From Torpedo marmorata (Eukaryota), in contig OZ360224.1 of NCBI GenBank assembly GCA_977017645.1, positions 9,982,001-10,046,000 of the forward strand: a DNA stretch of 64,000 nt, given 5' to 3'. Positions 14,771 to 60,534 of this stretch are shown piece after piece. The notes beneath the pieces are model-generated. The model searched no databases. It saw nothing but the letters and a program-made list of their open reading frames with translations, and was not told where the DNA came from. The translations under genes were made by a program, and so were the position numbers. Every line of letters starts with the position of its first letter. Position 1 is the stretch's first letter.

Positions 14771-15203
14771 CCCTTACACACAATCAAGTGTTTTAAATGT
14801 TGATCATATAATTTCAGTACCCCATTCCTGTTTTCTCCATTAGCTTGATCTCTTTAGCCAACTCACTTTTGAACAGATATACCAAACTGGGCTCAACAAC
14901 TTTGTGGTAGGGAGTTCCACAAGTTCACAACTCTTTTTTTAAAAAAATATTTTATTTAAAATTTTTAAATCACGAAATACATAAAGTAAAATATACAGTT
15001 ATGAAATTATTTGTGATACATTTTCACCCCCCCCTCCCTCCCTCCCCTCCCCAACCCTCCCAACCCCACTAATCTAATAAAAATATAAAATAAAAATAGA
15101 AAAAGAAGAAAGAAAAAGAAAGAGAAAAATAAAGTTAGGGAATGCCAATCTATAAACTACTTCTATTATGGAGGTCAAGTATGCCAGTAGACCCAATACC
15201 CAG

Positions 15204-15894
15204 TATAAGTAACGGTGACTTCGCTCCACCAATAGTCACCTGGAGGCTAAGTGTGGTCCTTGCTTTTGACGCGTTTTAATTAATTTACTAACAAAGTCCA
15301 ATATGTTCAAAACCTTTATTTTCACACATGACTTGCAGTAATCTTCAATGACTTTAATATAAACAGTTCTTGTAAACGATGTATGATAAGTTCCTTTAAA
15401 TTATTCTTTAAACAATTCCAAAATGATATGAAACACTGTAGAACGATGTAAAAGTTATAAAACGATATAAAACGGTATAAAACGGTCAATAAAGATGTGG
15501 AGACCAGACTCACCCCCCATACATCTCTATCCTTTCTTTGTTCTCTCTCTCCAATGGTTCTGCGCATGCTCCAACGCGCATACTACAATTCCCAGCCTCC
15601 CACGCGCACTATGACGTCACTCTATACTGCGCATGCGCCCGTCGGCACTCCCGCGCATGCGCATATCAAAGAACGGGCCGACGACGGCCCACAGAACAAC
15701 GCAAGCGCTCCAAGGCCCGACGTGGCCTCGGAGCGCGCTGAGGACGGCCCAGTGAACAACGCGAGCGCTCAATGGCCCGACGTGGCCCAGGAGCGCTCCG
15801 AGGACGGCCCACCGAACCACGCGAGCGCTCCAAGGCCCGACGAGACATCGGAGCGCCGCAACAACGGTAAGTTAACGAGCCTACGGCTCTTACA
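15204..15894 (-). repeat. BEL 3' LTR
   Basis: Direct repeat of 20635-21325. Minus strand reads TGTAAG...CTTATA. AATAAA on the minus strand near 15315-15320. Internal 3 x 60-bp repeat at 15683-15858. Confidence 0.95.
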
Positions 15895-16091
15895 CCGGCC
15901 CCTAATTATTATAATTAGACGTAATGTCTTGAATAATAATTACACTATAAATAATAATAACCATAACATTCAAAACAATACAAATCTTCTTTCTTCCTTC
16001 TTCATAAATCTAGAGTTTACCATAACTCTGATTCAACAAAAGTCTGTAACCTGTGAAATGTACAACAACAAATAAAGTCAGTTTACATTTA

Positions 16092-16275
16092 TCAAAGTTC
16101 CTCTGTCTCCAACAAAAGGCAGACCTGGTTAATAGGTCTGCTTAGAAAACCAGTCTTAGCTTTAATTCGCACTTGACGCACAAGTCCTCTTTGTCTTGAA
16201 AAGTCTCAATAATCTTTTCCAAGTAACCAGGAATTTCTTGAAGTTGAACCATCCATAACAATCACAATGTCTCTT
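16092..16275 (-). pseudogene. frameshifted remnant of the BEL integrase C-terminus (DUF5641-like)
   Basis: Manual translation: RDIVIVMDGSTSRNSWLLGK / IIETFQDK / GLVRQVRIKAKTGFLSRPINQVCLLLETEEL*. Confidence 0.8.
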
Positions 16276-16310
16276 TAAAGTTCTTTTATCTTCAAATCTG
16301 AGTTAAAATG

Positions 16311-19300
16311 TCAATCAGTAAACCTCAAATCTTCTTCAGACAAAATAGATACAGTTTTCCTTTTGAATTTAACACAAGGCACTTCTTCAGCACGTCGTTT
16401 CACTTTATTCCTTTCTTCAGTATTCCACTTCTCATGTGAAGAATTTAAACTCTTAGAATTAGAATTTGAATATTTATCTGATTCTTTCGATTTTAAACAG
16501 GTCTGTTTAACCACTCTGGTTTCTATTGCTCTTTCCTGCAATTCTAAATCCAATTTCGCAACTTTCAATTCAGTCTCAGCTCCTTCCGAGAAATTAATAA
16601 TTTGATCTGAAGTCAAAATATCATGCGATACATTGATAGTTCCATTGTCAATCCTGTTGCAGCATACTTGAAATTTTTTAATTTCTTCGTCTTGCTTGTT
16701 ACATTTCTGCAATGCAATCTCACATTCTTTCTGCATTGTTAATTGTTGAACATTCAATTTACATTCTTGATTGGTTTTTAAAGTCAACTGTTTTGTGTTA
16801 TTAACCAATAACTTGATCTCTTTCAAAACATTAATCTCTTCCTCCAACCTTTTACATTTTGATAATGCTGAATCTCTTTCCTCAATAACTGTATTCATTT
16901 CTTCAGCAGTTATTCTTTTCTTCCGCTTTCTGACTTTGCGAGTTTTACTTACAATTAAATCTTTCTGTTTACTGTTTTCTTGCTTATTTAATATTTCCAA
17001 TTCTCCTTTCAACATTTTGTTCTCTGAATCATTATTCTTTATTTCATCAGCACAATTTTCTGTGTTCTCCATTTTTACATCACATTGCAATAATTCTTCA
17101 TTAGCTTTGTCAATTGTAATCTCTGAACTACAAAATCTACATTCAGATTTGTTTTCAGTCACTTGTTTTATTCCTGTATTTGATTCAATTACACATGAAT
17201 GATCAACAGTATTATTTGCAACATCTTCTAATACTTCACTTTCATCCATTTCTGACGAAATTAATTTCTTCAATGTTGTTTTAAATACCACTGATTTATT
17301 TTCACATTGATCTGTTTTCTTTTCTTCATAAGTGATTTTCTTATTCACGGTTTTTTGCTCTTCTCTTAACTCTTCAAATTTCTCAACCGAAATTTTATTA
17401 ACATTTATCGCTACCTGTTCCCGAGCAATATCATTATTTCTTTCCATTGGTCCATTGATTGCCCAACCAAGTATGGTTCTAATAGCGTAAGGTCCATTCC
17501 TTTTACTTTCTATTACTTCTTTTGGTACCAAAACCTTTGGCACATCTGAACCAATCAGCATTTCTATCCCAGAATTAATTTCAGGTAAATAAACCTTCCA
17601 CAGATAAGCTAAATGATGGATATCACTTTGATGAGGAATATTTCCTTCGTTCACAGGCATAGTCTTCTGAGTATATACACTTGGAAGATCACAAAATTTT
17701 TTGTCATCCAATCCAGCAACCTCTAAGCCTGAAACAATGTTAGTTTCAACAACCTTTTCTTGTCCCATTGTTTTTAACATAATTCTTGATTTTCTTCCTT
17801 GAATATTAAGTTTATTCATTAGTCCTTCCGTGCAAAAAGATGCAGTGCTACCTGGGTCTAGAAATGCATATGTTTTTACTATTGCATCCCCTTTCTTGGC
17901 CTTAACTTGTACAGGCACTATTGAAAGTTTGCAGTTATTCACCCCGGCCCCAGTAAGACCACTTGTCTGAACCGAGGTTATAACATTATTTTCTGTTGTT
18001 TCCTTTGTTTCTGTTTGCTCCTTTTCCAATTCTTTGTTTCTGTTATGGACATGCAAAATTCTAGGATGTTTAAAATTGCATATGTCACAATTAATTTGCT
18101 TCTCGCAGTTTTTACTGATGTGCCCTTTACACAGACAGCTAAAACATATTCCATTTTCCTTTAAGAAAGCGATCCTTTCTTTATGTTCCTTCCTTTCCAA
18201 TTGTAAACACATTTCCAAAGCATGTCCACCTTTACAGAACAAACAACTCTTTTCATTAGGCAAACTTTCCTTTTCCTTATTTATTTTGTCCTTTTCTTTA
18301 CTTATAACTTGCACATTAGTAGCAAAAGTACTCCTTTTCACTTTCGGACTAGACTGTGAATTAGACTTCCTTACATCTTTACCCATTGAATTATCTCTGG
18401 CATTTCCATATAGTGGATCTGTTTCAACATACACTTGTCGTTCAAGAAAATTTACCAAATCCTTTAAAGTAATTCTTCGACCATAATTTACTTGTAAATC
18501 ACAAGCCAAATTTCTCCATCTATCCCATACCTTGTAAGGTAATTTTTCTAAAATGATTCGCATATTACTATGCACATCAAGCTCACGAATACCATCGATT
18601 TCTTCCATAGCATTACAACATCCTCTTAAAAACAAAGTATATTCTTGCAAAGCCTTTACATCATTTTGTTTTATTGATGTCCATTTAAGAGCTTTATCCA
18701 TATAAGCTAAAGCAATTCGATGTTTGTTGCCAAAATATTGTTCCAATAAAGCCTTAGCTTTGTCTAATCCTCTTCCTGAAGACATTTGGTTACAACTTTT
18801 TACCAGTTCTTTTGGATGTCCCTTTGTGAACATTTCCAAATAATAAAGACATTCATCTCGATCTTGGCATTTATCTTCAATATTGCGTTTGAAAGATCTC
18901 ATAAACGATTGATATTGAAGTGGATCACCATCAAAAGTTTGTATCTCTTTCTTGGGTAAAGAAGAGAGAGACTGTAACTGAAACAATGATGCAGCAATTT
19001 CATTTTGTCTTTCCTTGGATGACAATACATTGCTCTGTTCACTGTTTCTTGTTGCATGCAATGTATCTGGATACCTTACTGGTGTAGTTTTTTCCATATT
19101 TCTGATGCTGGACTCACATAACAAAGAAGCTACTTCGTTCGACCGAACCCAATCCGCAGCCTTGCTTTCAGATGTTATCATTGGTGCATGTGACTCGATA
19201 CCAATATGCTCTTGAAAGGTTTGTCTTTGTATATGTAAGTTTTGTATCCTTGGTTCTAAAATATCTATCCTTTTGGTTGGTTTCTTTTCCTGTGACTCCT

Positions 19301-20189
19301 TTTTTAAATATGACCTTTTATTATCAGATAATTTAGATAATTTACTGCTAGCACCAGATACCATTGAACCTTCTATTGCTTTCTTTTCTGCCTTGGCAAT
19401 AGCAATGTTTGCTTCCAGCTCCTGCAGTTCTTTTCTCTGTCTTAGCTGCTCCTTCTCTTGTCTTAGCTGCTCCTTTAGCTGCTCCTCCTTTTGTCTTAGC
19501 TGCTCCTCCTTTTGTCTTAGCTGCTCCTTTAGCTGCTTCTCATTTTGTCTTAGCTGCTCCTTTAGCTGCTCCTCATTTTGTCTTAGCTGCTCCTCCTCTT
19601 GTCTTAGCTGCTCCTTTAGCTGTTTCTCATTTTGTCTTAGCTGTTCCTCCTCTTGTTCTAATATAAATTTATCCTTAAGCGTTTTTTGTTGTGCAAGAAG
19701 AGCGGCCAATTTAACATCAACCTTTGTACGTGACGATGCAGAACTTGAAGTACGAGAAACTCTGGAGCTTGAACCAGAACTTCTTTTGCTTCTCCTGCTT
19801 TCAGCATTTGAGACACTGTCACTTGCTTGTATTTCGTCCTGCAGTTCATATGTTGTCTTCATACTTACCTCTTTATCCAATTCGAATTGTATATCCTTTG
19901 CATCTTCAACCAATTCAATTTCTTCCTCATTTGGTGACACAATTTCAGCCATTTCCAAGTTATCTTCTTGTTCAAATAATGAAGCTGCTTCTTCATCCTT
20001 TGCCTGCTTCAATCTTTCAATAAGAACCTTTTTATTTCCACTTATGTCCTTATTCAGTCGCTTCAATTCTTCTTTAATATCCGCAACCTTCATGTCTTCA
20101 ATACGTTGGTCCTCAACAGCAACATCAGCGGTTGCTGCGTCAGCTGCTGATAAATCAGTAGCTGCTGTATCAGTGGCTGCTGCGGCCAT
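16311..20189 (-). CDS. BEL/Pao chimeric protein: SAP domain - coiled coil - Gag (DUF1759-like) - three zinc knuckles - aspartic protease - MIPOL1-like coiled coil; no RT, RNase H or integrase
   Basis: Uninterrupted ORF. ATG at 20189 is in strong context; there is an upstream in-frame ATG at 20222. Motifs FDGDPLQY, CLFCKGGHALEMC, CFSCLCKGHISKNC, CDICNFKHPRILH, YAFLDPGS, GPYAIRTILGW. No YxDD motif. Confidence 0.88.
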   Translation of the reverse strand: MAAAATDTAATDLSAADAATADVAVEDQRIEDMKVADIKEELKRLNKDISGNKKVLIERLKQAKDEEAASLFEQEDNLEMAEIVSPNEEEIELVEDAKDIQFELDKEVSMKTTYELQDEIQASDSVSNAESRRSKRSSGSSSRVSRTSSSASSRTKVDVKLAALLAQQKTLKDKFILEQEEEQLRQNEKQLKEQLRQEEEQLRQNEEQLKEQLRQNEKQLKEQLRQKEEQLRQKEEQLKEQLRQEKEQLRQRKELQELEANIAIAKAEKKAIEGSMVSGASSKLSKLSDNKRSYLKKESQEKKPTKRIDILEPRIQNLHIQRQTFQEHIGIESHAPMITSESKAADWVRSNEVASLLCESSIRNMEKTTPVRYPDTLHATRNSEQSNVLSSKERQNEIAASLFQLQSLSSLPKKEIQTFDGDPLQYQSFMRSFKRNIEDKCQDRDECLYYLEMFTKGHPKELVKSCNQMSSGRGLDKAKALLEQYFGNKHRIALAYMDKALKWTSIKQNDVKALQEYTLFLRGCCNAMEEIDGIRELDVHSNMRIILEKLPYKVWDRWRNLACDLQVNYGRRITLKDLVNFLERQVYVETDPLYGNARDNSMGKDVRKSNSQSSPKVKRSTFATNVQVISKEKDKINKEKESLPNEKSCLFCKGGHALEMCLQLERKEHKERIAFLKENGICFSCLCKGHISKNCEKQINCDICNFKHPRILHVHNRNKELEKEQTETKETTENNVITSVQTSGLTGAGVNNCKLSIVPVQVKAKKGDAIVKTYAFLDPGSTASFCTEGLMNKLNIQGRKSRIMLKTMGQEKVVETNIVSGLEVAGLDDKKFCDLPSVYTQKTMPVNEGNIPHQSDIHHLAYLWKVYLPEINSGIEMLIGSDVPKVLVPKEVIESKRNGPYAIRTILGWAINGPMERNNDIAREQVAINVNKISVEKFEELREEQKTVNKKITYEEKKTDQCENKSVVFKTTLKKLISSEMDESEVLEDVANNTVDHSCVIESNTGIKQVTENKSECRFCSSEITIDKANEELLQCDVKMENTENCADEIKNNDSENKMLKGELEILNKQENSKQKDLIVSKTRKVRKRKKRITAEEMNTVIEERDSALSKCKRLEEEINVLKEIKLLVNNTKQLTLKTNQECKLNVQQLTMQKECEIALQKCNKQDEEIKKFQVCCNRIDNGTINVSHDILTSDQIINFSEGAETELKVAKLDLELQERAIETRVVKQTCLKSKESDKYSNSNSKSLNSSHEKWNTEERNKVKRRAEEVPCVKFKRKTVSILSEEDLRFTD
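19430..19660 (-). repeat. in-frame 12/21-bp tandem repeat encoding a QLRQxEE/QLKE heptad coiled coil
   Basis: Repeated TGTCTTAGCTGCTCC and TTTAGCTGC on the plus strand. Confidence 0.85.
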
Positions 20190-20634
20190 TTTACTCGTCT
20201 TGTTCCTCTTTCCTTCAAGCATACACAACACTAGCCAAACAACAGTCCCCAATGGACCAGCGGCAGCAATTCCAATCTGTGTTCTTACTTGCTAAAGATA
20301 CACAGAAGGAGTCCACAGACTTATGCCTACCACTTCTAATGACTGTAATGTGCTGCAATCCTTAAACGAGTTTCAACCACAACATCCGTCACTAATATCA
20401 CTAATTTTCCAAAAATGGTTTCTCCAACGTATTTATATGACACTTTATTATAAGATTTGAAGCTTTAAATCCCTCTCTGGCTGTTATTCATGGCAGATGG
20501 AAGTGGATTACAAACTGCCCCCAACTCGAGGCATCTCCAAATGGCCACCAATTTATATCAGTCCAAAGCACAGAGAGTTTTTTCTATCTTCTTTCCTTCA
20601 AACTTCTGTTCCAAACAGCCAGCCCTTTATTGAC

Positions 20635-21325
20635 TATAAGTAACGGTGACTTCGCTCCACCAATAGTCACCTGGAGGCTAAGTGTGGTCCTTGCTTTTGA
20701 CGCGTTTTAATTAATTTACTAACAAAGTCCAATATGTTCAAAACCTTTATTTTCACACATGACTTGCAGTAATCTTCAATGACTTTAATATAAACAGTTC
20801 TTGTAAACGATGTATGATAAGTTCCTTTAAATTATTCTTTAAACAATTCCAAAATGATATGAAACACTGTAGAACGATGTAAAAGTTATAAAACGATATA
20901 AAACGGTATAAAACGGTCAATAAAGATGTGGAGACCAGACTCACCCCCCATACATCTCTATCCTTTCTTTGTTCTCTCTCTCCAATGGTTCTGCGCATGC
21001 TCCAACGCGCATACTACAATTCCCAGCCTCCCACGCGCACTATGACGTCACTCTATACTGCGCATGCGCCCGTCGGCACTCCCGCGCATGCGCATATCAA
21101 AGAACGGGCCGACGACGGCCCACAGAACAACGCAAGCGCTCCAAGGCCCGACGTGGCCTCGGAGCGCGCTGAGGACGGCCCAGTGAACAACGCGAGCGCT
21201 CAATGGCCCGACGTGGCCCAGGAGCGCTCCGAGGACGGCCCACCGAACCACGCGAGCGCTCCAAGGCCCGACGAGACATCGGAGCGCCGCAACAACGGTA
21301 AGTTAACGAGCCTACGGCTCTTACA
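20635..21325 (-). repeat. BEL 5' LTR
   Basis: Direct repeat of 15204-15894. The ORF-track translations across the two LTRs are identical. Confidence 0.95.
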
Positions 21326-24300
21326 CCCAGAGATCCTCAAATTCTTAAGCCAACAGCTCTCATATATGGGCTCCAAATTTTTAAGAAAAAATGATATTTA
21401 TTACGTAGATTATAAGTAATTTTTTCAAGTGGTATACATGAACGAAGTTCTGCATGCCATCTTTCTAATCCTAAATCTAAATCAGATTTCCAAGTAATAG
21501 CAATGCATTTCTTTGAAACAGCTAAAGCAACTCGCAAAAATTCTATTTGATACATATTTAATTTCATCTTAATACCAAATTTTCTAATTTCTCCAAACAG
21601 AAATAACATAGGATCCATTGGAAACGTAATTTTAAATACTTTATCTAAGAAACTTTTAACTTTCAACCAAAAATCATAAACTTTTGGACAAAACCATGTA
21701 CAATGTACAAAAGATCCTTCTTCCTTATTACATCTAAAACATAAACCTGATAATGTCGGATTAAATTTCTTTAATTTTTTAGGTGTTAAATATAATTGAT
21801 GAAAAAAATTGCATTGAACTAATCTATATCTAACATTAATAATCTTTGTCATACTTAATTTAGATAATTCTTTTCAATGATTTTCATCTATTCTTACATT
21901 CAGGTCTAATTCCCATTTTAATCTTGATTTATGCATTCCTACTTTAGGCAATTTCCTCTGAAACAATTTATACATTTGAGAAATAAATTTATTAACATCC
22001 CCTTTAGTAACTAATAATTCTAATTCATTTTGTCTTGGCAAAATCAAAGCATTACCTAATTTCTCAATCAAAAAAGCTCTAATTTGATAATAAGCAAAAA
22101 GTGTGTTATCTAATATATTAAATTTATCTTTCATTCTTTGAAAAGTAATAAATTTTCCCGCTTCAAAACAATCATTAATTTTCTTAATTCCTTTTTGAAA
22201 CCAAATTTTAAATAATTGATTATTAACAGTAAATGGAATAAGTCCATTTTGATATAAAGGCATCCTTGAAGAAATCAATCCTTTTGCTCCTATTTCCTTA
22301 TCTGTCTTATACCATATTTCTAACAAATGTTTAAAAATAGGCGAATTTTTCTTTTTTGTTGATATTAATTTAGAATCCCATTTGTAAATAATTTCTTCTT
22401 TGGAATCTTCTCCTATATTATTTAATTCTATTTTAATCCAAGCAGAAGATTTAGTTAAATCAAAAAATTCATTAACAATTTTTAATTGAGCTGCTTTATA
22501 ATAATTTTGGAAATTAGGAAGTTGTAAACCACCCATTTCATAATTCCAAGTTAATTTTTCCATACCTACTCTTGCTAGCTTTCCTTTCCATAAAAATTTT
22601 CTAATAATTAAATTTAAATCTTTAAAAAAAATTTGAGGAATTCCATAAGGAATTGATTGAAAAAGATATTGAATTCTTGGAAAAACATTCATTTTAATAC
22701 AGTTTACTCTTCCCATTAAAGTTATAGGTAAATCTTTCCAGTTTTCTAAATCTTTCTTTATTTTCACAAATAATGGTAAATAATTTAATTTATATAAATT
22801 AGTCAAATTTGTATCAACCTTTATTCCCAAATATTTAATTCCTTCCTTAGCCCACTTAAATTGTGTAATTTCCTTACATCTACTATAATCCCCTTGTGAT
22901 AATGCCATAATTTCACTTTTATCAGAATTAATCTTATATCCAAATATTTCCCCATATTCTCTCAATAACAAAGACAATTGTACTCAGGATGTAGTAGATT
23001 TCGTCATATATATCAATACGTCATCTGCAAACAAGCTAATTTTATGTTCTTCCATTCCAACCTTAATACCAACTATTTTAGGATCTTTTCTAACTAATTC
23101 TGCCAAGGGTTCTATCGCCAAAATAAATAACGCTGGTGACAAAGGACATCCTTGTCTAGTAGATCGAGTCAAAGGAAAAGTTCACAACTCTTTGAGTGAA
23201 AATGTTTCTCCTCATCTTAGTCCTAAATGGCTTACCTCTTATCCTCAGATTGTGACCCCTTGTTCGGACTTCCCCAACATCGGGGACATTCAACCTGCAT
23301 CTAACCTATCTTGTCCTGTCAGAAAGTTATATGTCTCAATGAGATCCCCTCTCATTCTTCTGAATTCCAGTGAGCTTAACCCTTATCTGTCCAGTCTTTC
23401 TTCATACTTTAGTCCTGTCATCCCAGGAATCAGTCTGGTGAATTGTCACTGCACTCCCTCAATAGCAAGAATGTCCTTCCTCAGATTAGGACACCAAAAC
23501 TGTACATAGAGCCTAGGCCTGAAACGTTTATGTCCTCTGGATGCTGTGTGACCTGTTGAGTTTCTCCAGCACATTTGTGTATTGCATAATACTCAAGGTA
23601 TGGTCTCACCAAGGCTCTGTACAACTCCAATAAGACCTCCTTGTTTCTATATTCAAAACATCTCACTACAAAGACCAACATGTGATTTGCTCTCTTCACT
23701 GCCTGATGCACCTGCATTTCAACCTTCAATGACTGATGCACCATGGCCCCCAGGTTTCCTTGCACCTTTCCTTTTCCTAATTTCTCAACATTCTGATAAT
23801 CTGTCTTCCTACTGTTGCAACCAAAGTGAATAACCTCACATTTATCTACATTATACTGCATCTGCCACACATTTGCCCATTCTTCCTATCTGTCCAAGTC
23901 ACCTCTAGCCTCTTAGAATCTTCCTCATAGTTTGCATTGACACCCAGCTTAGTGTCATATGCAAATTTAGAGATATTATGTTCATCTAAATCATCAATAT
24001 ATATTATAAATAGCTAAGGTCCTCGGTCCTCGCATAGAACCTTGTAGTTCCCCACCAGTAACTGCCTGCCAATCTGGAAAGGACCTTTTTTTGCTTCCAA
24101 CCAGCCAACCAGTTTTCTAGATTTGTCAAGCATGATTTCCCTTTTGTAAATCCATGCTGACTTAGATTAATCCTGTCACTCCTCTCCAAATGTGCAGCAA
24201 TGACATCTTTAATAATTGACTCCAGCATATACCCCACCACTGAAGTTAGGCTAACTTGACTCTAATTCCCTGATTTCTCTCTCCCTCCTTTCTTAAAAAG

Positions 24301-24823: not shown

Positions 24824-26497
24824 TTTTTTTTTTTTTTTTTTTAAATATTTTATTTTAAGATTTTCCATACTAGGCCACATAATGGAATAAAATACCTAGG
24901 GGTTCGGACAGATAATAAATTAAAGAATTTATACAAGTGGAATTATGTACCATTGCTTAATAAGATTAAGGAGGATCTAGAGAAATGGATTAATCTGCCA
25001 ATCACATTGATAGGAAGAGTTAATTGTATTAAGATGAATATATTTCCAAGGATACAGTACTTGTATCAGACTATACCTATTTCACTACCACAGGTATTTT
25101 TTCAAGACTTAAATAAACAGGTGCGAAAGTTTTTATGGAAAGGAAAAATGTCAAGAGTTTCGATGGAACGTTTAACATGGAAATATGAACTGGGAGGTCT
25201 ACAACTCCCTAATTTTAAGAACTACTATAGAGCGGCACAGATGCGTTTTATTGCTTCTTTTTTTGAATCTGAAGAAAGACCTGCGTGGGTTGGAATAGAG
25301 CTTGGAGAAATAGGAGAGAAGAAGTCACAAGAATTTATATATAAATGGAACTCAAAACTGTTGACAGGTGTTAAAGAAACACCGCTATTAAAACATTTGA
25401 TTAATGCTTGGAATAAGGTTAATGACGATATAGGATTAAAAGGAAATGTATCACCTAAAATGCCATTGATACAGAACAATCTGATACCATTTACAAAAGA
25501 TAACCCTTTTTTAAATACATGGTCATTAAAAGGAATAAAGAAAATAGAAGATTGCTACGAAGGAAATCAAATGATGTCATTCACACAATTACAGAATAAA
25601 TACGGAATACCTAGAAATACATTTTTTTGCTATCTTCAACTAACGTCTTACTTAAGAGGAAAATTAGGTCCAGACATGTTGTTACAAGAATGCAGTGAGG
25701 TAGAAACTATTATTAGGAAAGGAAACATTAAGAAATTTACCTCCATAGTATATTCTTTGCTACAGAAGGGAGCTCAAAAACGAGGACTTCATAAGTCCAG
25801 ACAAAGATGGGAACAAGATCTTAATATTATAATTGATGAAAAAAGATGGTCAGATCTATGCCTAGATAGTATGACTAATACTGTTAATGTAAGATATAGA
25901 CTGGTACAATATAACTTCTTACACCAAATATATTTCACACCACAAAAACTGAACAAGATGAACTCTGCAATACCAAATAGATGTTTTAGATGTGGAGAAG
26001 AAGAAGGAACATTCTTACACTCAACGTGGTCATGTTCAAAAGTTAAAGATTTTTGGGCAGAGTTAGGAAACCGGTTGAAACTAATTACAGGTGTTGCATT
26101 TCCTCAAAACCCTGACTTGTTCTTATTGGGGAATATAGAGGGAACTAGACCAAAATTGAAATTATCCACATGGCAATTAAAATTCGTGAAAATTGCACTA
26201 GCAGTAGCTAGGAAATGTATAGCAGTGACCTGGAAATCGGACACAAATTTGAGTATGAGTAGATGGAATTCAGAGATGCAGAGTTGCATCCCATTGGAAA
26301 AAATAACATGCAATATGAGGAATAAGTATGGACTCTTTTTACAAATTTGGCGTCCATTTATCCAATTATCAGGAATGAATATTTAAATATATTGCCCTGC
26401 ATCCCAGGCCCCGCTGACTCTCCTAAGTTTAAATTTGAAGAATGAACATTGCTGAATCTCTTACATCGAGCCATGGATGTGTACAGATATATTTTCA
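24824..26497 (-). mobile_element. L1 insertion with 5' inversion (twin-priming-type structure)
   Basis: Poly(T) plus about 40 nt of L1 3' end on the minus strand (24824-24880), then ORF2 C-terminus on the plus strand (24953-26386). 15-bp TSD ATCTGCCCCTTCTTT at 24812-24826 and 26498-26512. Confidence 0.88.
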
Positions 26498-26894: not shown

Positions 26895-27143
26895 AGTAAA
26901 AAACACAAAAGCTGGAGAACTCAGCAGATCAAACAGTGTCTTTTATGTAGCAAAGGTAGGAATACATAACCGACGTTTCGGGCTTGAGCCCTTCATCAAA
27001 GTACTTTGATGAAGGGCTCAAGCCCGAAACGTCGGTTATGTATTTCTACCTTTGCTACATAAAAGACACTGTTTGACCTGCTGAGTTTCTCCAGCTTTTG
27101 TGTTTTTTACTTCTAACCACGGTGTCTACAGATTTTCGTGTTT
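26895..27143. mobile_element. Palindromic Penelope pLTR mini-element with two inverted hammerhead-like motifs
   Basis: Arms of about 107 bp with no spacer, centred on 27002/27003 (CAAAGT|ACTTTG). TSD ACTTCG(A/T)GTTTTGC at 26881-26894 and 27144-27157. Confidence 0.88.
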
Positions 27144-41062: not shown

Positions 41063-43266
41063 TTAAAAAATATTTTATTTAAAATTTTAAATCACTCGAT
41101 AATACATATTTATAAAATGCAAAATTATCAAAATACATGTGATATATTTTCACCCCCCCCTCCCTCCCTCCCTTCCCTCCCTAACCCTCCCACCCTTACT
41201 ATTCTAATAATATAGAAAGAAAGAAAAAGATAAAGTAAGGAGAATGTCAATCTCAAAAGAACAACTATAAACTAATTTTATTGTGGAACACAGGTTCGCC
41301 AGTCAGATCTGATATCAAGAGATCTTCAAATCCTTAGACCCACAGTTTTTATATATGGGCTCCATATTTTCAAAAAGAAATGATATTTGTTACGTAAATT
41401 ATAAGTAATTTTTTTCAAGTGGTATAGCTGAACGAAGTTCTGTATGCCATCTTTCTAACCCTAAATCTACATCAGATTTTCATGTAATAGCAATGCATTT
41501 CTTTGAAACAGCTAAAGCAATTCGCAAAAATTCTATTTGATACATATTTAATCTCATTTTAATACTAATTATTTTAATATCTCCAAACAAAAATATCATA
41601 GGATCCATTGGGAGTGTAATTCTTAATACTTTATCTAAAAACATTTTAACTTTCAACCAGAAATCATATATCTTTGGACAGAGCCATGTAGAATGTACAA
41701 AAGAACCTTCCTCTCTATTACATCTAAAACATAAACCTGATAATGTCGGATTAAATTTCTTTAATTTCTTAGGTTTTAAATATAATTGATTCAAAAAGTT
41801 ATATTGCACTAACCTATATCTAACGTTAATAATCTTTGTCATACTTTGTTTACATATTTCTCTCCAATGTTCTTCATCTAATGTTACATTCAAATCCGAT
41901 TCCCATTTTAATCTTGATTTATGAATTCCTAGTTTAGGCAATTTTCTCTGTAACAATCTATACATTTGAGAAATAAATTTATTTATATCCCCATTAGTAA
42001 CTAATAGTTCCAATTCACTTTGTCTTGGTAAAGTTAAACTATAACCCAACCTTTCAACTAAAAATGCTCTAATTTGATAATAAGTAATAAATTTACTAGC
42101 TTCAAAACAATCATTTATTTTTTTAATTCCTTTTTGAAACCAAATTTTAAATAATTGATTGTTAATAGTAAATGGAATAAGTTTATTTTGATATAAAGGC
42201 ATTTTTCGAGAAATTAACCCTTTCCCTCCTATCTCCCTATCCATTTTATTCCATATTTCTAACAGATGTTTTAAAATAGGAGAATTATTACCTTTCCTTA
42301 ATAATAATTTAGAATTCCATTTGTAAATAACTTCTTCTTTCAAATCCTCTCCTATATTATTTAATTCTATTCTAATCCAAGCAGAAGATTTTTCTAAATC
42401 AAACATTTCATTAATAAATTTTAATTGAGCTGCTTTATAATAATTTTGAAAATTGGGAAGTTGTAAACCTCCCATTTCGTAATCCCGAGTTAATTTCTCC
42501 ATACCTACTCTGGCCAAATTTCCCTTCCACAAAAATTTCCTAACAATTAAATTTAAATCTTTAAAGAATTTTTGAGGAATTTCATAAGGAATTGATTGAA
42601 AAATATATTGAATTCTTGGAAAAACATTCATTTTAATACAATTTACCCTTCCTATTAAAGTTATAGGTAAATCATTCCAACTTTCTAAATCTTTTTTAAT
42701 ATTCATAAATAATGGTAGATAATTTAATTTATATAAATTAGCTAATTTTGTGTCTGTTTTTATTCCCAAATATTTAATTCCATTATTTGACCATTTAAAT
42801 CGAGTAATTTCTTTACATTTATTGTAATCTCCTTGTGTCAATGCCATAATTTCACTTTTATCAGAATTAATCTTATAACCAGATATTTCCCCATATTCTC
42901 TCAATAAAACAGTCAGTTGCATTAAAGAATCAATAAGTTTTGTCATGTAAATCAATACATCATCTGCAAACAAACTAATTTTATGTTCTTCTTTTCCAAC
43001 TTTAATACCTACAATTTTAATATCTTGTCTAATTAATTCTGCTAAAGGTTCTATTGCTAAAATAAACAATGCTGGCGACAAAGGGCATCCTTGTCTAGTT
43101 GACCTAGTCAAAGAAAATTTTGAAGAAATTTGTCCATTTGTCACTATTCTGGCAGAGGGTTCTTTATATAAAGTTTTAATCCAATTAATAAATGTAGTTC
43201 CAAAATCAATTTTTTCCAACATTTTAAATAAATAATTCCACTCTAATCTATCAAAAGCCTTTTCGA
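41063..43266 (-). mobile_element. L1-clade LINE, 5'-truncated
   Basis: 597-aa ORF2 part (EKAFDRLEW, TRQGCPLSP, LFADD, CFRC..HSTWLC). 14-bp TSD CTGACAATCCTTTT at 41049-41062 and 43267-43280. Confidence 0.93.
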
Positions 43267-43592
43267 CTGACAATCCTTTTGATTACTTTTGCACCTGTGT
43301 GCTGTCTTTTAGTAATTTTTGTAAATCCATTTAATTCTCCACAGATCCTAGTTTTCCAACTTTAAGAAAGCATTCTGTTTGCTCAGATCCATAATAAATG
43401 ACCTTACATTTCCCTACTGTAGTTTTATTCATTGACTTAATGTTTTTGATCCTTTTTAATGTTTTCCTCCTAACCACACTACTTGCCTCCAAACACTGCC
43501 TTTCACAAACTTGGTTATGTGCCAGCTCCATAAATGGTTACTATGCCCCTTTAACTGTATCCTCCAACAGCCCCACATCTGTCTGAGATCAC

Positions 43593-51693: not shown

Positions 51694-52858
51694 TTTAGAG
51701 GATGGTCTCGCAGTTCTGGAGGTGTTTAAAACATCTTTACAAATTTAATCTCATTATTTGGGTGTACGGGTGCCATATTTGCAAAAAGTAGAATATTTAT
51801 TCCTCAAGTTATATGCAATTTTTTCTAAAGGAATACAAATTTGAATTTCAGCATGCCACCTTTGCATATCCAAAGATGTATCGGATTTCCAAGTCACAGC
51901 AATACATTTCCTCGCTACTGCTAAAGCTAGTTTAACAAGTACCAATTGATAATTTGATAGTTTCAATTTAGGTCTTGCACCCTCAATATTCCCTAAAAGA
52001 GCTAAATCATGGGTTTGTGGAAATACAATTCCTGTAACTTGTTCTAAAAAAATTCGTATATCTAACCAAAAGGTTTTTACCTTGGGGCAAGACCAAGTTG
52101 AATGTATAAAAGAACCTACATCTTCACCACATCTAAAACATTTGTCAGATAATTCTGGTTTTATTTTATGTAATTTCTGTGGTGTCAGATATAATTGATG
52201 CAAAAAATTATATTGAACTAATCTATATCTTACATTTATAGTATTAGTCATAATTTAGTCATAGTATTTACATAAATTTTCCCATAATTGTTGATTAATT
52301 GTAATATTTAAATCTATTTCCCATCTCTGTCTAGATCCATTTAGCCCCTGTTTGTGAGCTCCAGTTTGTAGTAATTCAGAAATCTTAGAAGTAAATTTTT
52401 TAACAATTCCTCTCCTAATCAAAAGTTCTACTTCATTACATCTAGGTAAAGACATAGTTGGTCCCAATTTATCTCTCAGATATGCTTTTAATTGGAAATA
52501 ACAAAAAAAAAGTATTTTGTGGTATGGCATATTTATTCCTCAACTGTACAAACGATATTAATTGACCTCTTTCATAACAATCTTCAAGATTTACAATCCC
52601 ATTACGGTACCAAATATTCAAAAATTGATAATATCCTCTAAATGTATCTATATGATATCTTGAGATGTGTCACGAGCGGTGCTCCTCTAAGCAATCCAAA
52701 AATTTATTTCTTCTTTTTTCTTTCTATTTTCTTTTTTTTTATACTTATAGATATTTGTGATATAAATGCATATTTTGTAGCGGGGGGGGGTTGGGGGGGA
52801 GAAGGGATGGAGTAAAATTGTATTATTAAAAATTTAAATAAAATATTCCCAAAAAAAA
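51694..52858 (+). mobile_element. L1 insertion with 5' inversion (twin-priming-type structure)
   Basis: ORF2 C-terminus on the minus strand (51754-52530), then 3' UTR, AATAAA and poly(A) on the plus strand (about 52630-52858). TSD AGGAATGGAGGCAGCC at 51678-51693 and 52858-52873. Confidence 0.88.
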
Positions 52859-55800
52859 GGAATGGAGGCAGCCAGAGACAATCCTAAATGAATACAGTGC
52901 AAGCTGTCTCTTCCATTGGATATAATTCTGATGTCCAATGGTACATTTGCTAAGTGGTACCAAAGACTGGAAAATGACCTTTATTGGAGGCTGCAAATTG
53001 CCATAAATTGGTTCTCAGACTGAGGGAAAATTGACAATAAAAAGCCTTATTTAGATATGAAAGATCGAGGGCATGTGCCATATTTGAAGAATAGCTGAAG
53101 GTGGTTACAATTTCTATTCTTCATCACTATATAAAAAAAAATCAAATGACAATTTGCCTTGTTTCCATCAGGTAAATGAAAATGCACTAATGGTGGATAA
53201 AAAGTGGCAATTATGGCATATTGTTTGGGAGATCAATACTCTGTGTCTAGATGTTGTAAACTGAAGTTTGGTGCCTGACAAATCTTCACATCAGATTGAC
53301 AGAAGCATGAGGGAGAATCACAATAGATTTTCCATATATTTTAAAGCCAAGGAAGAAAAAAACCGATTTCAAGAGCTCGCACTGAAGCTGGCACAAAGTA
53401 ATGAATGGCCTGGTTCGGATGGTTAAATTCTATGATTTCCTTGTTGTTCCTGGTGATTGATTACAGAACATTATAACTGGAAGCCTAGAACTAAAATTGG
53501 TACCTTGTCAGCTCTATGATTTAGATAGTGATAAAGGAATTGTGAAAGAAAGAATGAAGGCAGAAATATAATTTTACAAATATAAAATAATTTAGTAATT
53601 TGTTATCTACTTAACATTCGAGGAAGCCAATTGTGTTTAGCTGAATTAAATTTCACTTGAACCTAAATAATACACAAATAATAGACTACTGAAGGATAAG
53701 TTCATAAGAGTTCATTTCTAGATGAGACTATACTGATGTTTGACTGAAACCATAGTCTGCCTATCAAACATACCACACAAATTTCCCACTGCAAAACTGT
53801 TACTGCGTACTTCCTCTCTTTTGGTTTCTTTATTCCACATAAAGGCATTTATGAACCACATATAATTTAAAAGTAAATGGTTGCTTATTCAATGAATCAT
53901 ATGTTTGGAGATTCTTATGTCACATTCGGCAAGGTGTTTTGAAATTTGTAAAGTTCTACAAAAAACCTAAAGATTGAATATTTGATGTAAATGTAATGTC
54001 CCAACATAATTCTCCAGATGGGTTGTGACCCAATTTTGGGAAAGTGAGATTGCAGTGGTCTTCTCTCATGAGAAACTCTTCAGACAGAATGTATCTCTGA
54101 ATCACACATGTGTATTTCGGGAGCAGGATGGAATCTCAGCACAGGGTATTGCTCCAAATCCTGCATATTATTTCCCAGGCTATTTATAGATTCAGAGACA
54201 TTTATAGCTCTACAGTCTTCAGGAATTAAATGTTGTGATTAATGCCACAGAAAAATCCTAAAAATAATACAAGACAATTCTAATCTCAAGTTTTGTTGCA
54301 AGATGAATGGGCACTTGTCAGTTCTCTGGCCAATTTTTGACTTGTCTGTTTTCTGCTGCATTGTTAACAGGACAGAATTAGCAAGAAAATTATAGCCTTA
54401 ATTGTTTGGATAATGGAAGCTCAGGGAAGTTTGCAAAAGGCATTTTCTGACAGGTTTCATAAATTCAAACATATCCCGAGGCTTACTCTGTGCTGGTTTG
54501 ATGTTTTCTCTGGTTACATGTCTGAGTGTCTAAGTAAATTTGGTGCAAATCGCAGACACTTTTTTCAAAGGGAACCTGGCCCTGTTTTGAAATGAGACCT
54601 CCAAGTAGCCTCAATACAGCAACATTCATACTTAAATTTGCAACAGGAACAATATTTCATTGTTTTCATGTTTTGCTGAACCATTAATTTGCTTTATACA
54701 AGTATGATGCACTACCGTGGAACAAAAAACAGTAGTTTTAGGTAACTTTTTAAACTCTTTCTCTATATGTTAAAAACTAATTACTTTTTCAAATCACAGA
54801 TAATTGGGCATTTTAGCAGAATTGTAACTTTTCCCCATTAGGGTTGATGATGAACACATGTTGAAAATCATAATCATTTGTCTCAAAACTGAAACAAGCA
54901 ACCTAAAGTTTTGAGAAAGCAGAACTTCCATTGCCTCAAAATTATTAATTTAGCTCCTTGAGATTTTAGTTGAAAACGAGTTGACATTGAATGTGTTTTA
55001 ACTCCCTCTCTATGCATATGTTTACAATATGTCTCCATTTAAAAGGTTACATATCATGCAAGGTCATAAAGCTGGATAAGCTGGCTAAAGGACAGAAAAT
55101 ATTAATGTATTGAAATTACATTCTTGACTGCAGACTGGACATAGCTTTCTCTTTCAGCGTGTACAAATGCTAATATCTCAGAACGCGGATCAATCTCTAG
55201 CTTCTACCTTGTTGTAAAGAGAGTTAGAATGAGGAAAGAGAAATGTATTACCTGTACTAACAGAAATGTTACAGTGATGCTTCAGATATTGTTCTTTGTA
55301 TGACAGTTTTCAGATCAAAAAGCAAGAACCATTTTAATAAGCCTGCAACAGTACAAAATATTCAATGGGAGACTTTTATTTTTCTAAGAGTTCAAAAACT
55401 TCAGGAAAATCATTTAATGTTTAGAAATTAAAAGATGTTTTATGTTTCTCAGTTTTTATTGAATAAATCTCTTCTACGATAAACATGTTTAGTTAAGAGA
55501 TCAAAGCTGTTCAAGTGGCCTTCAGTTGCTAAAATAACTGCCTTCCAATCAGCAAGCATTGAGGCTTACTTGTAAAAAGGCAAAATTATAGCACCATAAC
55601 TTAGCAAAGTTCCTCATCCCCTCCCCACCCACCCACAGTCCAAACCATAGAGCAAACGCCATATTAACAAAACATGTAAATCCCATTACAGATGAGGTTC
55701 ATGCTTCCAGGTAGCATGGTGTATCTCGTTCCATAAAATATACAGTTGTAGCCGACTGCTACGAAGAAACACACACACGCAGTGTGGAAGGTTAAGCTCT

Positions 55801-56149
55801 CTGCTTTATTGAGGCTGAAAATGCTTCTTTTATACAGTTGGAGTTCCCACCGTTTGGTTGATTGGTTGACATCAGCTGCATGAATAACAATAGCGGGTGG
55901 GAACGTTCTTGCATATGAATACCCTTCTTCCCCAGCCTGGTATTGATCTATTAGCTGGGCAGCTTGGCCAGCACCATTTTAGGGCTGCTGGTCTTGTACT
56001 GCTCCAGCTTTCAACCGTGCCAGTTCGCTATGCTAAGGGTCGCGTTACAGAGTGTTATGCCGCTGTTTACAACCGCGCGCGCCGCGCGATGTGCCGGCTC
56101 GATCTCTGCGGTGGCGGGCCGCCACATGACCCCCCCCAGAAAAGGCACT

Positions 56150-58675
56150 ACAGTTCATAGTGTCCGTGGATGCAGTCCCCAATGTCTTTGGTGGCCTGCC
56201 TCTGCGCCGAGGTGCTGGCGTCTCCACGGGTTGTGTTGGGTCCGTGTGTGCCGGCTTGAGCCTGTCTGCGGTGAAGACCTCTGGTTTGCCACCGATGTCT
56301 TGTTCGAAGGAGGCCCCGTTGTTCCGGACGACTCAGAAGGGGCCTTCGTAGGGCTTCTGTAGAGGTGGACGGAGTGGCCCTCTGCGTACGAACACATACT
56401 CACAGTCTCGGAGTTCTTTAGGGATGTTGAACTTGGCTTGCCCGTGTCTGGAGGGTGGGATCGGAGCCAGGTTACCGATCTTTTCCCGCAGCCTGTCCAG
56501 GAAGTTGGTTGTATCCTCCTGTTGACCTCTGGCCAGTGGGACGAAATCCCCGGGGACCATGAGTGGAGCTCCGTAGACGAGCTTGGCGGAGGATGTGTGG
56601 AGGTCTTCCTTCGGGGCTGTACGAATCACCAGCAGTGCCCATGGCAGTTCGTCAACCCAGTTGGGGCCCTTGAGTCTGGTCATAAGGGCGGCCTTGAGGT
56701 GCCTGTGGAAGTGCTCAACCAGCCCGTTAGACTGCGGGTGGTATGCTGTTATGTGGTGTAGCTGAGCGCCCCACAGGTTGGCAACGTCGGTCCACAGGCT
56801 GGAGGTAAATTGTGCGCCTCTGTCGGAGGTTATGTGGCGTGGTAGCCCAAACATTGCTACCCAGTACGAGACGAGTGCCTTGGCGCAGGACCTGGTGGAT
56901 GTGACGGCCAGGTGGATTGCTTCTGGCCACTGGGTGAAACAGTCGACCACCGTGAACAGGTAGCAGAAACCCTGTGAGACTGGTAAGGGTCCCACTATGT
57001 CCGCGTGAATGTGGTCAAACCTTCGCTCCATTGGCTCGAAAGGCTGCGGGGGGACCTTGATGTGCCGCTGTACCTTGGCTGTTTGGCACTGTCTGCATGT
57101 CTTGGCCCACCTGCTGACTTGTTTCCGCAATCCATGCCGCGCGTACTTACTGGCCACCAACCGGACCATGGTCCTGATTGATGGATGTGCCAGCCCGTGG
57201 ATAGAGTCGAAAACTCGTCGCCTCCATGCCGTTGGGACGATAGGTCGAACCTGCCCGGTGGCCACGTCACACAGGAGGATAGTGTTACCTGTTCCAACTG
57301 GGATGTCCTGAAGCTGCAGCCCCGTGACGGCGGTCCTGTACTGAGGCATCTCGTCGTCCTGCTGCTGTGCCTCCGCCAGTGCCACGAAATCCAGTCCGAT
57401 AGCCAGAGAGTGGATGCTCTGTCTTGACAAAGCGTCCGCCACCATGTTGTCTTTTCCCGAGATGTGCCTTACATCGCTGGTATACTCCGAGACGTAAGAC
57501 AAGTGTCTCTGCTGGCGGGCTGACCAGGGATCGGAGATCTTGACCAGGGCGAACGTCAGTGGCTTGTGGTCCGTGAAAGCCGTGAAAGCCCTTCCCTCCA
57601 GGAAGTACCGGAAGTGGCGGATGACTAAGTACAGCGCCAGTAGCTCTCTGTCGAAAGCACTGTACTTTAGCTAAGGGGGCTGCAGATGTTTGCTGAAGAA
57701 AGCTAGTGGACGCCAACTTCCCTCTATCTGCTGCTCCAGAACTCCACCAATCGCCATTCCTGAGGCATTAACCGTGAGGGCTGTGGGTGCGTCTGACCTG
57801 GGGTGGGCCAGTAGTGCAGCGTTAGCCAGGGTTTCCTTCACTTCCACGAATGCTCGTGCAGAGTCATCGTCCCAGGTCAAGTCCTTCGCCTTGCCGGTCA
57901 TCAGGGTGAAGAGTGGGCACATGGTTCGAGCAGCTGCGGGGATGAATCTGCGATAAAAGTTGACCATCCCCACGAACTCCTGCATTCCTTTGGACGTATT
58001 GGGCCTCGGGAAGTTGTGGATAGTCTCCACCTTGCTGGGTAGTGGCATGGTCCTGCATTTGGTAATCCTGTGGCCCAGGAAGTCAATCGTGCTCAGCCCG
58101 AACTGACATTTAGCCAGGTTGATATTAAGACCGAACTCACGTAGGCGACTGTAAAGGCTTCGGAGGTGTTGTAGATGTTCCTGCTGGGTTCTGCTCGCCA
58201 CCAGGATATCGTCTAAGTAGACGAAGGTGCCGTCCATGTCTCGGCCCACCGCATCCATCAGTCGCTGGAAGGTCTGTGCCGCGTTCTTGAGCCCGAATGG
58301 CATCCTCAGGTACTCGAACACCCCGAACGGACTGATGATGGCCGTCTTGGGGATGTCGTCAGGGTACACCACGATTTGGTGGTACCCTCGGACCAAGTCC
58401 ACTTTGGAGAAGATCGTCGCTCTGTGCAGGTTTGTTGCAAAGTCCTGGATATGTGGCACGGGGTAACGATCTGGAGTGGTGGCCTCGTTAAGCCGGCGGT
58501 AGTCGCCGCTTGGTCTTCAGCCCCCAGATGCTTTGGGCACCATGTGCAGGGGAGAAGCCCATGTACTGTCCGACCGCTGAATGATGCCTAACTCCTCGAG
58601 CTTGCGGAACTCCTCCTTGGCCAGTTGAAGCTTCTCCGGGGGAAGTCGTCTCGCCCTTGTGTGGAGAGGTGGACC
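56150..58675 (-). pseudogene. Gypsy pol (RT-RNase H-integrase) with stops and frameshifts; protease missing
   Basis: [33 protein letters not shown] (HGLAHP..CRQC), IHADIVGP, ITSDRGAQF, PYEGPF*. Confidence 0.9.
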
Positions 58676-59341
58676 CCTGGAACTCGCAGGGCGACCGGCA
58701 TTGGCGGGCCTCGGAGCCCCATCTTTGGTGGTAGAAGCACCATCTCTCCTTGGACTCGTCCCTGCCTCTTGCCTGCCGCTCCTTTCCAGGGCCTGCTTGG
58801 TCTGGTTGCGAGACTTCGTGACGAGCCCCACGGTAGCGGAGCACTTCTGTTTCTGGTTCCACAGAATATCTGCCCGTGTTGTGACTTTCCGGGGGTCGCT
58901 GAAATCCATGTCAGCCAGGAGCAGTTGGATGTCCTCGGGCAGCTGCTCCAAGAACGCCTGCTCGAACATGATGCAGGGCTCGTGGTCTCCCAGGAGGGCT
59001 AGCATCTCGTTCATGAGCGCTGACGGGGATCTGTCCCCTAGCCCATCCAGGTGGAGCAGCCGTGCCCCTCTCTCTTGCCGCGAGAGCCCGAAGGTCTCAG
59101 TCAATAGCTCTTTGAAGGCAGTGTAAGTGCCTTCCGATGGTGGCCTCTGGATGAAGTTGGCCACCCTGTCTACAGTCTCTGGATCCAGGGCGCTGACCAC
59201 ATGGTAGTACCGTGTGGTCTCAGCTGTGATGCCCCGAATCTGGAACTGAGCCTCAGCCTGGTCGAACCACACGCTGGGTCGAACTGTCCAGAAGGTCGGG
59301 AGCTTGAGGCTGACTGCGCTGATCGCTGCTTCGCTATCCAT
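58675..59341 (-). pseudogene. Gypsy gag, frameshifted
   Basis: LKLPTFW...WFDQAEAQF. The knuckle lies in a second frame (58488-58862). Confidence 0.85.
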
Positions 59342-60534
59342 CGCTGGGTTTAGATGCTGTCTAAACCGTCGGGGTCACCAATTGTAGCCGACTGCAACGA
59401 AGAAACACACACACGCAGTGTTGAAGGTTAAGCTCTCTGCTTTATTGAGGCTGGAAATGCTTCTTTTATACAGTTGGAGTTCCCGCCGTTTGGTTGATTG
59501 GTTGACATCAACTGCATGAATAACAATAGCGGGCGGGAACGTTCTTGCATATGAATACCCTTCTTCCCCAGCCTGCTATTGATCTGTTAGCTAGGCAGCT
59601 TGGCCAGCGCCATTTTAGGGCTGCTGATCTTGTACTGCTCCAGCTTTCAACCGCGCCGGTTTGCTATGCTAAGGGTCGCGTTACAGTGTGTTATGCCGCT
59701 GTTTACTACCGTGCGCGCCGAGCGATGTGCCGGCTCGATCTCCGTGGTGGCGGGCCGCCACACAGTCTTTAAACTCTGGAACAAATGCTCCACCCAGTTT
59801 ATCAAGCTGCAAAACAGAAAATACAGTTTCAAAATAACTGATGGCTGATCAAAGAGCTGTTGCTATTGAAACTGAAGTTCTTGATCTATACATTATTTTA
59901 ACTTCCACTGTGTACTTTAAAGCACACTGACTAGTGCAAAGTTCCAATTTAAATGTCACAGCTATCTTGTGTCGGTTGGTATTAATCACAAGAAAAGATG
60001 AAAGCAGACAAGCTTACTGTATTTACACACAGGCAGTCTAAATTTTACCCAAACATGGTACAGTTTGTGCATACTAAGAAGCAACAGTATTCAGAACAAG
60101 ACTTGCTTTGATAAACTGGCATGCAGCAGTATCCTGATACCACTGACATGGAAGTCCCATGAGTTATTACATCTCCATTAGCAACCTGATATAAAAGAGT
60201 TATGTCACTTAATCTCATTTAAATTCCTGGGGGAAGGTCTTCAAAGTTCACCTCATGACTGACCATTTCTGCCCATGGATGCTGCTTGACCCATTAAGTC
60301 CCTCCAGCTTCCCTTTGTTTGCTCAAGATTCCAGCACCTGCACATTTTGTGTTTCTCATCTAAACATTCTCTTGTTCAAAGTTTTTCTGCAATATACTTC
60401 AGCTTTTCCAGATTATCCAAGGGTTTCAGTGCAATTCCAAAAAATAGACTGCCAGCAAAAGAATAATCACGCCAGTGGTATAATTCCAATTTCTGGTAAA
60501 AATGCTATCCCAGAATGATCACATGGTCAAACTT

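Follow-up and report, generated by a model that had tools for sequence, protein, structure and literature searches.

Background

The closest described precedent for a circular RNA preserved in genomic DNA is the mouse circRFWD2-derived pseudogenes, 33-42 copies whose mechanism of origin was called mysterious (Dong et al. 2016, PMC4897178). They resemble the family described here in that a non-colinear exon junction is fixed in DNA, that one circle gave rise to many copies, and that LTR-element sequence (MMERVK10C-int) is found at their flanks. The return of circular RNAs to genomes was left open by the discovery paper; a back-splice junction located within complete LTR elements makes capture in particles traceable.

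A second group of related cases are LTR-mediated retrocopies, in which partial, spliced host RNA replaces a portion of the internal ORF, sequence from more than one gene may be joined, and the products are non-autonomous, all as in the present family (Tan et al. 2016, PMC5131818). Examples given in that study are the mosquito element BEL18_AG and a mouse 'Super' retrocopy derived from four genes; the cases described are single or low-copy loci, and 'circ' is absent from its main text. Maize Bs1, treated in the same study, likewise combines pieces of three unlinked host genes in an LTR element with a hybrid ORF; this plant element is present in 1-5 copies, one of its pieces is out of frame, and its description there makes no mention of a back-splice. 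Finally, IAP 1Δ1 (PMC7411935) and bovine ERVK D-type, ETn and RecKoRV elements (PMC10924933) are non-autonomous and dominate new insertions, like the family reported here; 1Δ1 carries an in-frame fusion helping in cis, and in the other three a central segment was swapped. Defective ERVs outnumbering competent ones are covered by PMC10924933.

Here we analyze an LTR element family of the ray Torpedo marmorata in which pieces of three host genes take the place of pol, one of them in an exon order that was most likely copied from a circular RNA.

Results

The window (the whole 64-kb stretch of DNA that was analysed) contains a non-autonomous BEL/Pao LTR element at positions 15204-21325 on the minus strand, on which all features of the element given below are located. 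Its two LTRs of 691 bp (5' LTR, 20635..21325; 3' LTR, 15204..15894) do not differ from each other, and five matching bases at both flanks (21326..21330 and 15199..15203) represent the target-site duplication, as expected for BEL/Pao elements. The LTRs start with TG and terminate with TA instead of CA (window 20615-20640 and 15204-15210), and a TGG-type primer site is absent downstream of the 5' LTR; the helper elements described below are alike in both respects.

A single ORF of 1292 amino acids (16311..20189) comprises gag, protease and a cassette of host sequence; frame, peptides and coordinates are as given in an initial annotation of this DNA. The ORF encodes a SAP domain (aa 30-63; 20001..20102; Pfam E-value 7e-9), which is present in the helper too, tandem coiled-coil-like repeats in gag (19433..19656), three Cys/His knuckles (18051..18245), which we take to be those of a BEL gag, and an aspartic protease region (17355..17924) with a weak Pfam match (E-value 0.12) and a catalytic motif at 17844-17864. 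Reverse transcriptase (RT), RNase H and integrase are absent from the ORF according to both a Pfam search and alignment with the helper. This alignment breaks at 17355 and restarts at 16273, and a host cassette of 1081 nt (16274..17354) thus replaces the ~3.2 kb encoding the three enzymes, in agreement with the earlier claim that pol had been replaced downstream of the protease. The untranslated tail (15895..16273) consists of an integrase end remnant, which is DUF5641 in the helper, and a polypurine tract, and is 96% identical to the helper 3' end. The helper L184 shows the BEL/Pao layout, with a single gag-pol ORF encoding three Cys/His knuckles, protease, RT, RNase H and integrase (PF05380, DUF5641); over amino acids 1-945, the window ORF shares 87-91% identity with helper ORFs (87% with L184). 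For the tail of the window ORF, a Pfam search retrieved no family, the MIPOL1 model included. Its single-sequence fold model (mean pLDDT 59.5) predicts one confident helix at aa 1095-1181 (pLDDT 86-96) and little else with confidence.

The element lies within a LINE, close to the LINE 3' end (window 15148-15203 and 21326-22983), and related LINE copies are found at 24845-26386, 41410-43282, 51754-52254 and 61101-62528. A second, GC-rich LTR element at 55743-59678, presumably Gypsy-like, has ~95% similar repeats and frames for gag, RT and integrase that are broken, and a near-perfect, spacer-free palindrome of two 85-nt repeat arms is located at 26918-27087.

The last 303 amino acids of the ORF match 39 proteins among 1655 candidates with a length of 30-709 aa. 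All 39 contain the MIPOL1 Pfam pair, 37 are named MIPOL1, and the best match is a Narcine protein (E-value 1e-30), which confirms the identity proposed initially. A search of the tail against 1.84 billion representatives yielded 33 matches, none of them at 1e-30 and none spanning the tail; the 12 sequences inspected resemble ordinary collinear MIPOL1, and 10 were checked by name. Both homologue searches were limited in extent (the first to proteins of 30-709 aa) and do not imply absence elsewhere. MIPOL1 clusters also rank first for the tail in the ESM Atlas, at a score of 0.83 that we treat as a lead. A generic coiled-coil match is ruled out because the host exons align in DNA above shuffled exons.

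In this alignment, the 3' part of MIPOL1 exon Ed is followed, in spliced form, by Ee (16752-16856) and Ef (16657-16751; the three exons together, 16657..16961), and then by Ea (16583-16656) and Eb (16503-16578) with an in-frame deletion of 81 nt between them (16503..16656). The second, out-of-order MIPOL1 block noted earlier is thus real. Matches to the window (Ed 108/121, Ee 86/104, Ef 72/91, Ea 53/74 and Eb 65/76 nt) are far above those of shuffled exons; three other MIPOL1 exons (the big exon, Eg and Eh) score at about shuffled-exon level. The last base of Ef is joined to the first base of Ea at 16656..16657. In the host gene, which was mapped on C40 across 400 kb, exon Ef terminates at a GT donor, Ea is preceded by an AG acceptor, and Ea is located 206 kb upstream of Ef, so that the join has the order of a back-splice.

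This arrangement is not confined to the window. A genome search with Narcine MIPOL1 gave 132 matches, and most of the matched loci show amino acids 437-553 followed directly by 295-385 (80-91% identity), each of them within an older relative of the window element. These old copies contain Ed (from base 45-48), Ee, Ef, Ea, Eb and ~18 nt of Ec at 93-98% identity, the start of Ec being present in 20 of 22 loci. The Ef-Ea join shows no base gained or lost, its register being exact at 28 of the 29 old loci; in young copies the start triplet of Ea is retained in 71 of 74 rows, with a gap nearby in 2 of 74. A 23-mer of the joined host exon ends has 172 exact matches in the genome (reversed control, 0).

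The MIPOL1 piece is flanked by pieces of two further host genes, which the initial annotation had not recorded, as it had recorded neither the exact back-splice order nor the very large family. Upstream (16962..17359), part of a 147-nt BRCA1 exon is followed, after splicing, by the beginning of the large exon (94/113 and 236/296 nt matching the host exons on C61), and all six protein matches among 434 candidates are BRCA1 (best E-value 8e-71). Downstream (16283..16495), the end of the large exon of Elongin A (ELOA) and the first part of a later one (124/152 and 55/66 nt matching the host exons on C41) include the ORF stop at 16311; among 71 candidates there are seven Elongin A matches, all with PF06881, and in old copies this piece matches PDB entry 8oev (E-value 1e-54). 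The closest named proteins come from the electric ray Narcine, in keeping with a batoid host related to electric rays. Old copies cover four host exons of BRCA1 (C61) and five of ELOA (C41), spliced, collinear and 88-100% identical, of which the window has retained eroded remnants. Twelve exon junctions are crossed in old copies (5 in MIPOL1, 3 in BRCA1, 4 in ELOA), those in MIPOL1 bearing out the proposal of a spliced source; as in LTR-mediated retrocopies, intronless host sequence stands for part of the internal ORF, and all three pieces retain the host frame. At the BRCA1-to-MIPOL1 switch point there is a 2-nt overlap relative to the present host sequences, the other switch points being blurred by later deletions. 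The BRCA1-MIPOL1 switch point, the MIPOL1-ELOA switch point and both pol ends all fall at positions other than exon ends.

Some subfamilies (L123, L124, L125) carry an additional ELOA piece (~aa 100-163 or 128-228) between the start of pol and BRCA1, an arrangement found at 25 or more places; ELOA may have been captured first and the other genes nested within it. A Narcine BRCA1 isoform (P0043) begins with 185 gag-like amino acids instead of the RING domain, which is probably an annotation artefact.

From Ea to Ef the host exons amount to 780 nt, which is divisible by three, and the back-splice junction is therefore in frame. Hallmarks of a circRNA-derived retrocopy are present at the DNA level: a downstream donor is joined exactly to an upstream acceptor, exons outside the circle are absent from 61 copy loci, and a single Ea is found in 400 kb of the parent region. 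Because all MIPOL1 sequence falls within the 780-nt circle, we infer from the DNA that the template was most likely a circular RNA. Circles from the gene MIPOL1 are tabulated for mouse and human (PMC9888537, PMC8783515), and retroviral particles were reported to package circRNAs (bioRxiv 10.64898/2026.01.21.700838). The reversed order might also have arisen without a circle, if RT jumped back on a linear MIPOL1 mRNA or copied a trans-spliced or exon-duplicated linear RNA. Dong et al. (PMC4897178) allow for other routes to non-colinear junctions, the AG at both exon ends offers a 2-nt microhomology, and the element made many other jumps; yet no other switch point examined in the cassette coincides with an exon end, and the chance that a random jump lands on two splice sites, as both ends do exactly, is roughly 2e-4. 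Moreover, the host MIPOL1 region of 400 kb contains a single Ea, and the big exon, Eg and Eh, which lie outside the circle, were found in 0 of 61 copy loci. A linear template is thus improbable. The initial suggestion of a captured spliced host mRNA therefore holds with respect to splicing, but a circle is the most likely form of the RNA, and three genes contributed instead of one. As a candidate considered separately, tandem exon duplication in the present host gene was not found across the 400 kb.

Several further observations concern the MIPOL1 piece. The stretch encoded at 16925-16955 (minus strand) is more basic than in the host and nearly invariant in 34 intact copies; to us it resembles a nuclear localisation signal. 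One locus (L118, G000:C42:9563886-9564965) has a 405-nt tandem duplication across the back-splice junction. Five element copies (L061-L100) are located inside the introns of MIPOL1 itself (G000:C40:64283222-64495542), which may be chance; for comparison, 200 kb surrounding BRCA1 and ELOA contain no copy, and samples taken at fixed positions, 200 kb in all, contain one.

A PF05380 profile search of the genome gave scores at 150 places, of which 11 lie in frames of more than 2000 aa. Of the helper candidates fetched, 13 of 14 align with the window element over two stretches, one from the LTR through the protease and the other in the 3' tail. The youngest ones (L182-L188) are 93-96% identical to it in gag-protease, 96% in the tail and 94-98% in the LTR, and the sole difference between helper and window element is the ~3.2 kb of pol in place of the 1081-nt cassette. 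A protease 20-mer common to both forms occurs 13,981 times in the genome. The first 100 of these matches (all on C1, 0.6-20.8 Mb) comprise 96 cassette copies, two pol copies and two truncated ones (95% interval of the cassette share, 90-99%), and cassette copies thus greatly outnumber the helper; plain deletions without a cassette were found at none of the 100 loci. We estimate a family size of ~13,000 copies as a floor, provided that C1 is typical, which at ~6 kb each represents by our arithmetic roughly 1% of the 6.2-Gb genome. In 800 kb chosen regardless of the element there are six junction copies, five of them those in MIPOL1 introns. Many young copies and a helper sharing LTR and ends, as is characteristic of non-autonomous LTR families, together with the missing pol suggest that the cassette elements are mobilised in trans by the helper.

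In old cassette copies, the two LTRs of a pair are 82-96% alike, and gag is only ~65-76% like that of the window; helper, old and young subfamilies thus coexist in one genome. In a tree of 51 protease rows, young cassette copies form a sister group of young helpers and fall among older ones, old cassette copies stand apart from the young ones, and the starred branches force at least two label changes; in a tree of a longer gag-protease region (54 rows), young helpers nest within cassette copies. Taken together, the two trees point to recombination between cassette and helper forms, with a helper sample that is small and biased to good Pfam scores, and the cassette persisted through at least one backbone change. 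Head-to-tail arrays of elements with a period of ~5.0-5.4 kb, probably sharing LTRs, were noted at G000:C47:25489726-25501619, C11:241306604-241318605 and C1:1497569-1517444. No sequence record containing the element is labelled as RNA. One sequencing run (X6) behaves as RNA, in that an ELOA contig skips two GT..AG introns; its contigs cover 29 of 30 element bins including the cassette, a pattern that a little contaminating DNA could also produce given the number of copies.

The cassette is ~20% diverged from the host genes and free of stop codons. Changes on the long branch that leads to the young copies from the host and the old copies were counted at 259 codons whose host form is also the most frequent one in old copies; 32 codons that differ and 7 that are ambiguous were excluded. 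The 120 changes comprise 93 nonsynonymous and 27 synonymous ones (omega 1.24, p 0.35) and no stop, compared with 8.6 expected; 0 of 4000 simulations were stop-free. By direction, 86 changes are GC-to-AT and 19 are AT-to-GC. The internal deletions that distinguish the window from old copies measure 24, 24, 120, 81, 195, 3 and 3 nt and are all in frame, as opposed to 42 of 140 private indels, and the tail was halved through in-frame deletions. The deletions at the two ends measure 257 or 285 nt and 110 nt, values that reflect separate breaks in the old copies used, and two old copies lost the frame near the ELOA end. Among 74 rows (the window and 73 of the 100 loci; 23 incomplete or non-cassette loci and four tandem repeats were dropped), shared stops in the cassette number 0 versus 7.6 expected (p 0.002; p 0.004 without CpG). 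Indels common to at least four copies are three in frame and none shifting in the cassette, compared with 0 of 15 in frame after the stop (p 0.001).

The lack of stops and the exclusively in-frame fixed internal deletions thus demonstrate that the reading frame is under selection, as had been proposed for the fusion. If the cassette were neutral cargo that stayed open by luck in a young burst, a long-branch omega near 1 would be expected and is indeed seen; however, a stop-free frame at ~20% host divergence, uniformly in-frame internal deletions and the deficit of shared stops render this highly improbable.

At the amino-acid level the situation is uncertain, constraint being absent on the long branch and borderline recently. 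For MIPOL1 the long-branch omega is 1.35, with Ed and Eb as the least changed exons. In recent copies, the codon model gives an omega of 0.38 for the MIPOL1 block in 34 intact copies and 0.66 in 40 broken ones, compared with 0.64 for BRCA1 and 0.33 for the protease (34 intact copies), and shared changes (N24:S17) differ from private ones (N112:S30; p 0.014) in tests that covered several regions with small counts. When CpG-context sites are excluded, the MIPOL1 signal has an odds ratio of 0.55-0.66 (p 0.18-0.45), and that of gag-protease is significant at two of three thresholds. No constraint was found for the BRCA1 and ELOA pieces. The comparison of dN/dS among copies that had been proposed as a check thus gives a low recent value for MIPOL1, which loses significance without CpG sites, and no constraint on the long branch (1.24-1.35).

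These data bear on the possibility that, with the same origin, the MIPOL1 helix is now a working part, for example as an oligomerisation arm promoting assembly of its Gag with helper Gag-Pol or as a decoy for a host partner, that was remodelled early and then constrained. The difference in omega between intact copies on the one hand and broken copies and BRCA1 on the other, the shared-versus-private contrast, the single confidently predicted helix, the lack of plain-deletion copies and the modest change of Ed and Eb on the long branch would all fit. However, the signal fades without CpG-context sites while that of gag-protease largely persists, the long-branch omega exceeds 1, a 45-nt (15-residue) deletion in the helix has reached 12 of 74 rows, and multiple regions with few counts were tested. 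We thus consider a working helix possible, if doubtful; an accessory or decoy protein released by the protease, as suggested initially, is likewise hypothetical.

Discussion

We propose as the probable explanation that this is a non-autonomous BEL/Pao family in which spliced, in-frame BRCA1, MIPOL1 and Elongin A sequence stands in for pol, with MIPOL1 copied from a circle, the frame being kept and the enzymes being supplied by the helper. Element RNA, helper RNA and host RNAs would have been together in one particle, where RT might have switched template several times, once onto the MIPOL1 circle and across its back-splice. The product, retaining LTRs, gag, protease and 3' tail, would move using helper pol. 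Most simply, unbroken translation to near the 3' end would be favoured if the element's own Gag aids its own RNA in cis, for which the in-frame fusion of IAP 1Δ1 provides a precedent (PMC7411935, citing Saito et al. 2008); alternatively, an early stop might destabilise the RNA through decay. The tail itself would mostly be open-frame filler that erodes via in-frame deletions, a reading based on the long-branch omega of 1.24, the unconstrained BRCA1 and ELOA pieces and the helix deletion in 12 of 74 rows. Against filler stand the lack of plain deletions among 100 loci, which pure filler would not predict, the recent MIPOL1 omega close to that of the protease, the shared-versus-private contrast and the survival of the cassette through at least one backbone change.

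Should the helix indeed work, a captured circRNA would have become a new protein part, i.e. a MIPOL1 coiled-coil arm on Gag-protease that beats its helper tens to one, follows new backbones and is under purifying selection as the protease is. We put this forward only tentatively; if true, a circular RNA would have turned into a functional protein domain in evolution.

With this family, back-splicing in a cartilaginous fish is preserved as a DNA fossil. The family has spread BRCA1, MIPOL1 and Elongin A fragments and offers thousands of copies in which the retention of an open frame can be studied. In these rays it will interfere with both gene annotation and the calling of circRNAs.

In the literature searched, neither this family nor an in-frame circRNA fusion in an active LTR element is described; Repbase, Dfam and most subscription papers were outside the scope of this search, and the family may be catalogued as a repeat. 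The initial statement that no BEL element of this kind was known holds for the family, but capture of host RNA by a BEL element is already on record in mosquito BEL18_AG (PMC5131818). The retroviral elements IAP 1Δ1, ERVK D-type, ETn and RecKoRV have centres that are deleted or consist of old retroelement DNA (PMC7411935, PMC10924933), in contrast to host exons in a BEL/Pao element here. Unlike in Bs1, all three host pieces of the ray family are in the host frame, and the family outnumbers its own helper. While the circRFWD2 copies are pseudogenes (PMC4897178), the ray family consists of an estimated 13,000 copies at least, in complete LTR elements and in frame with gag-protease, and it goes beyond circRFWD2 in its selected frame, an identified helper and two more host genes. 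Compared with these precedents, the family is striking in that it combines an exact back-splice with a single selected frame drawn from three genes and reaches a copy number ~300x that of the precedent.
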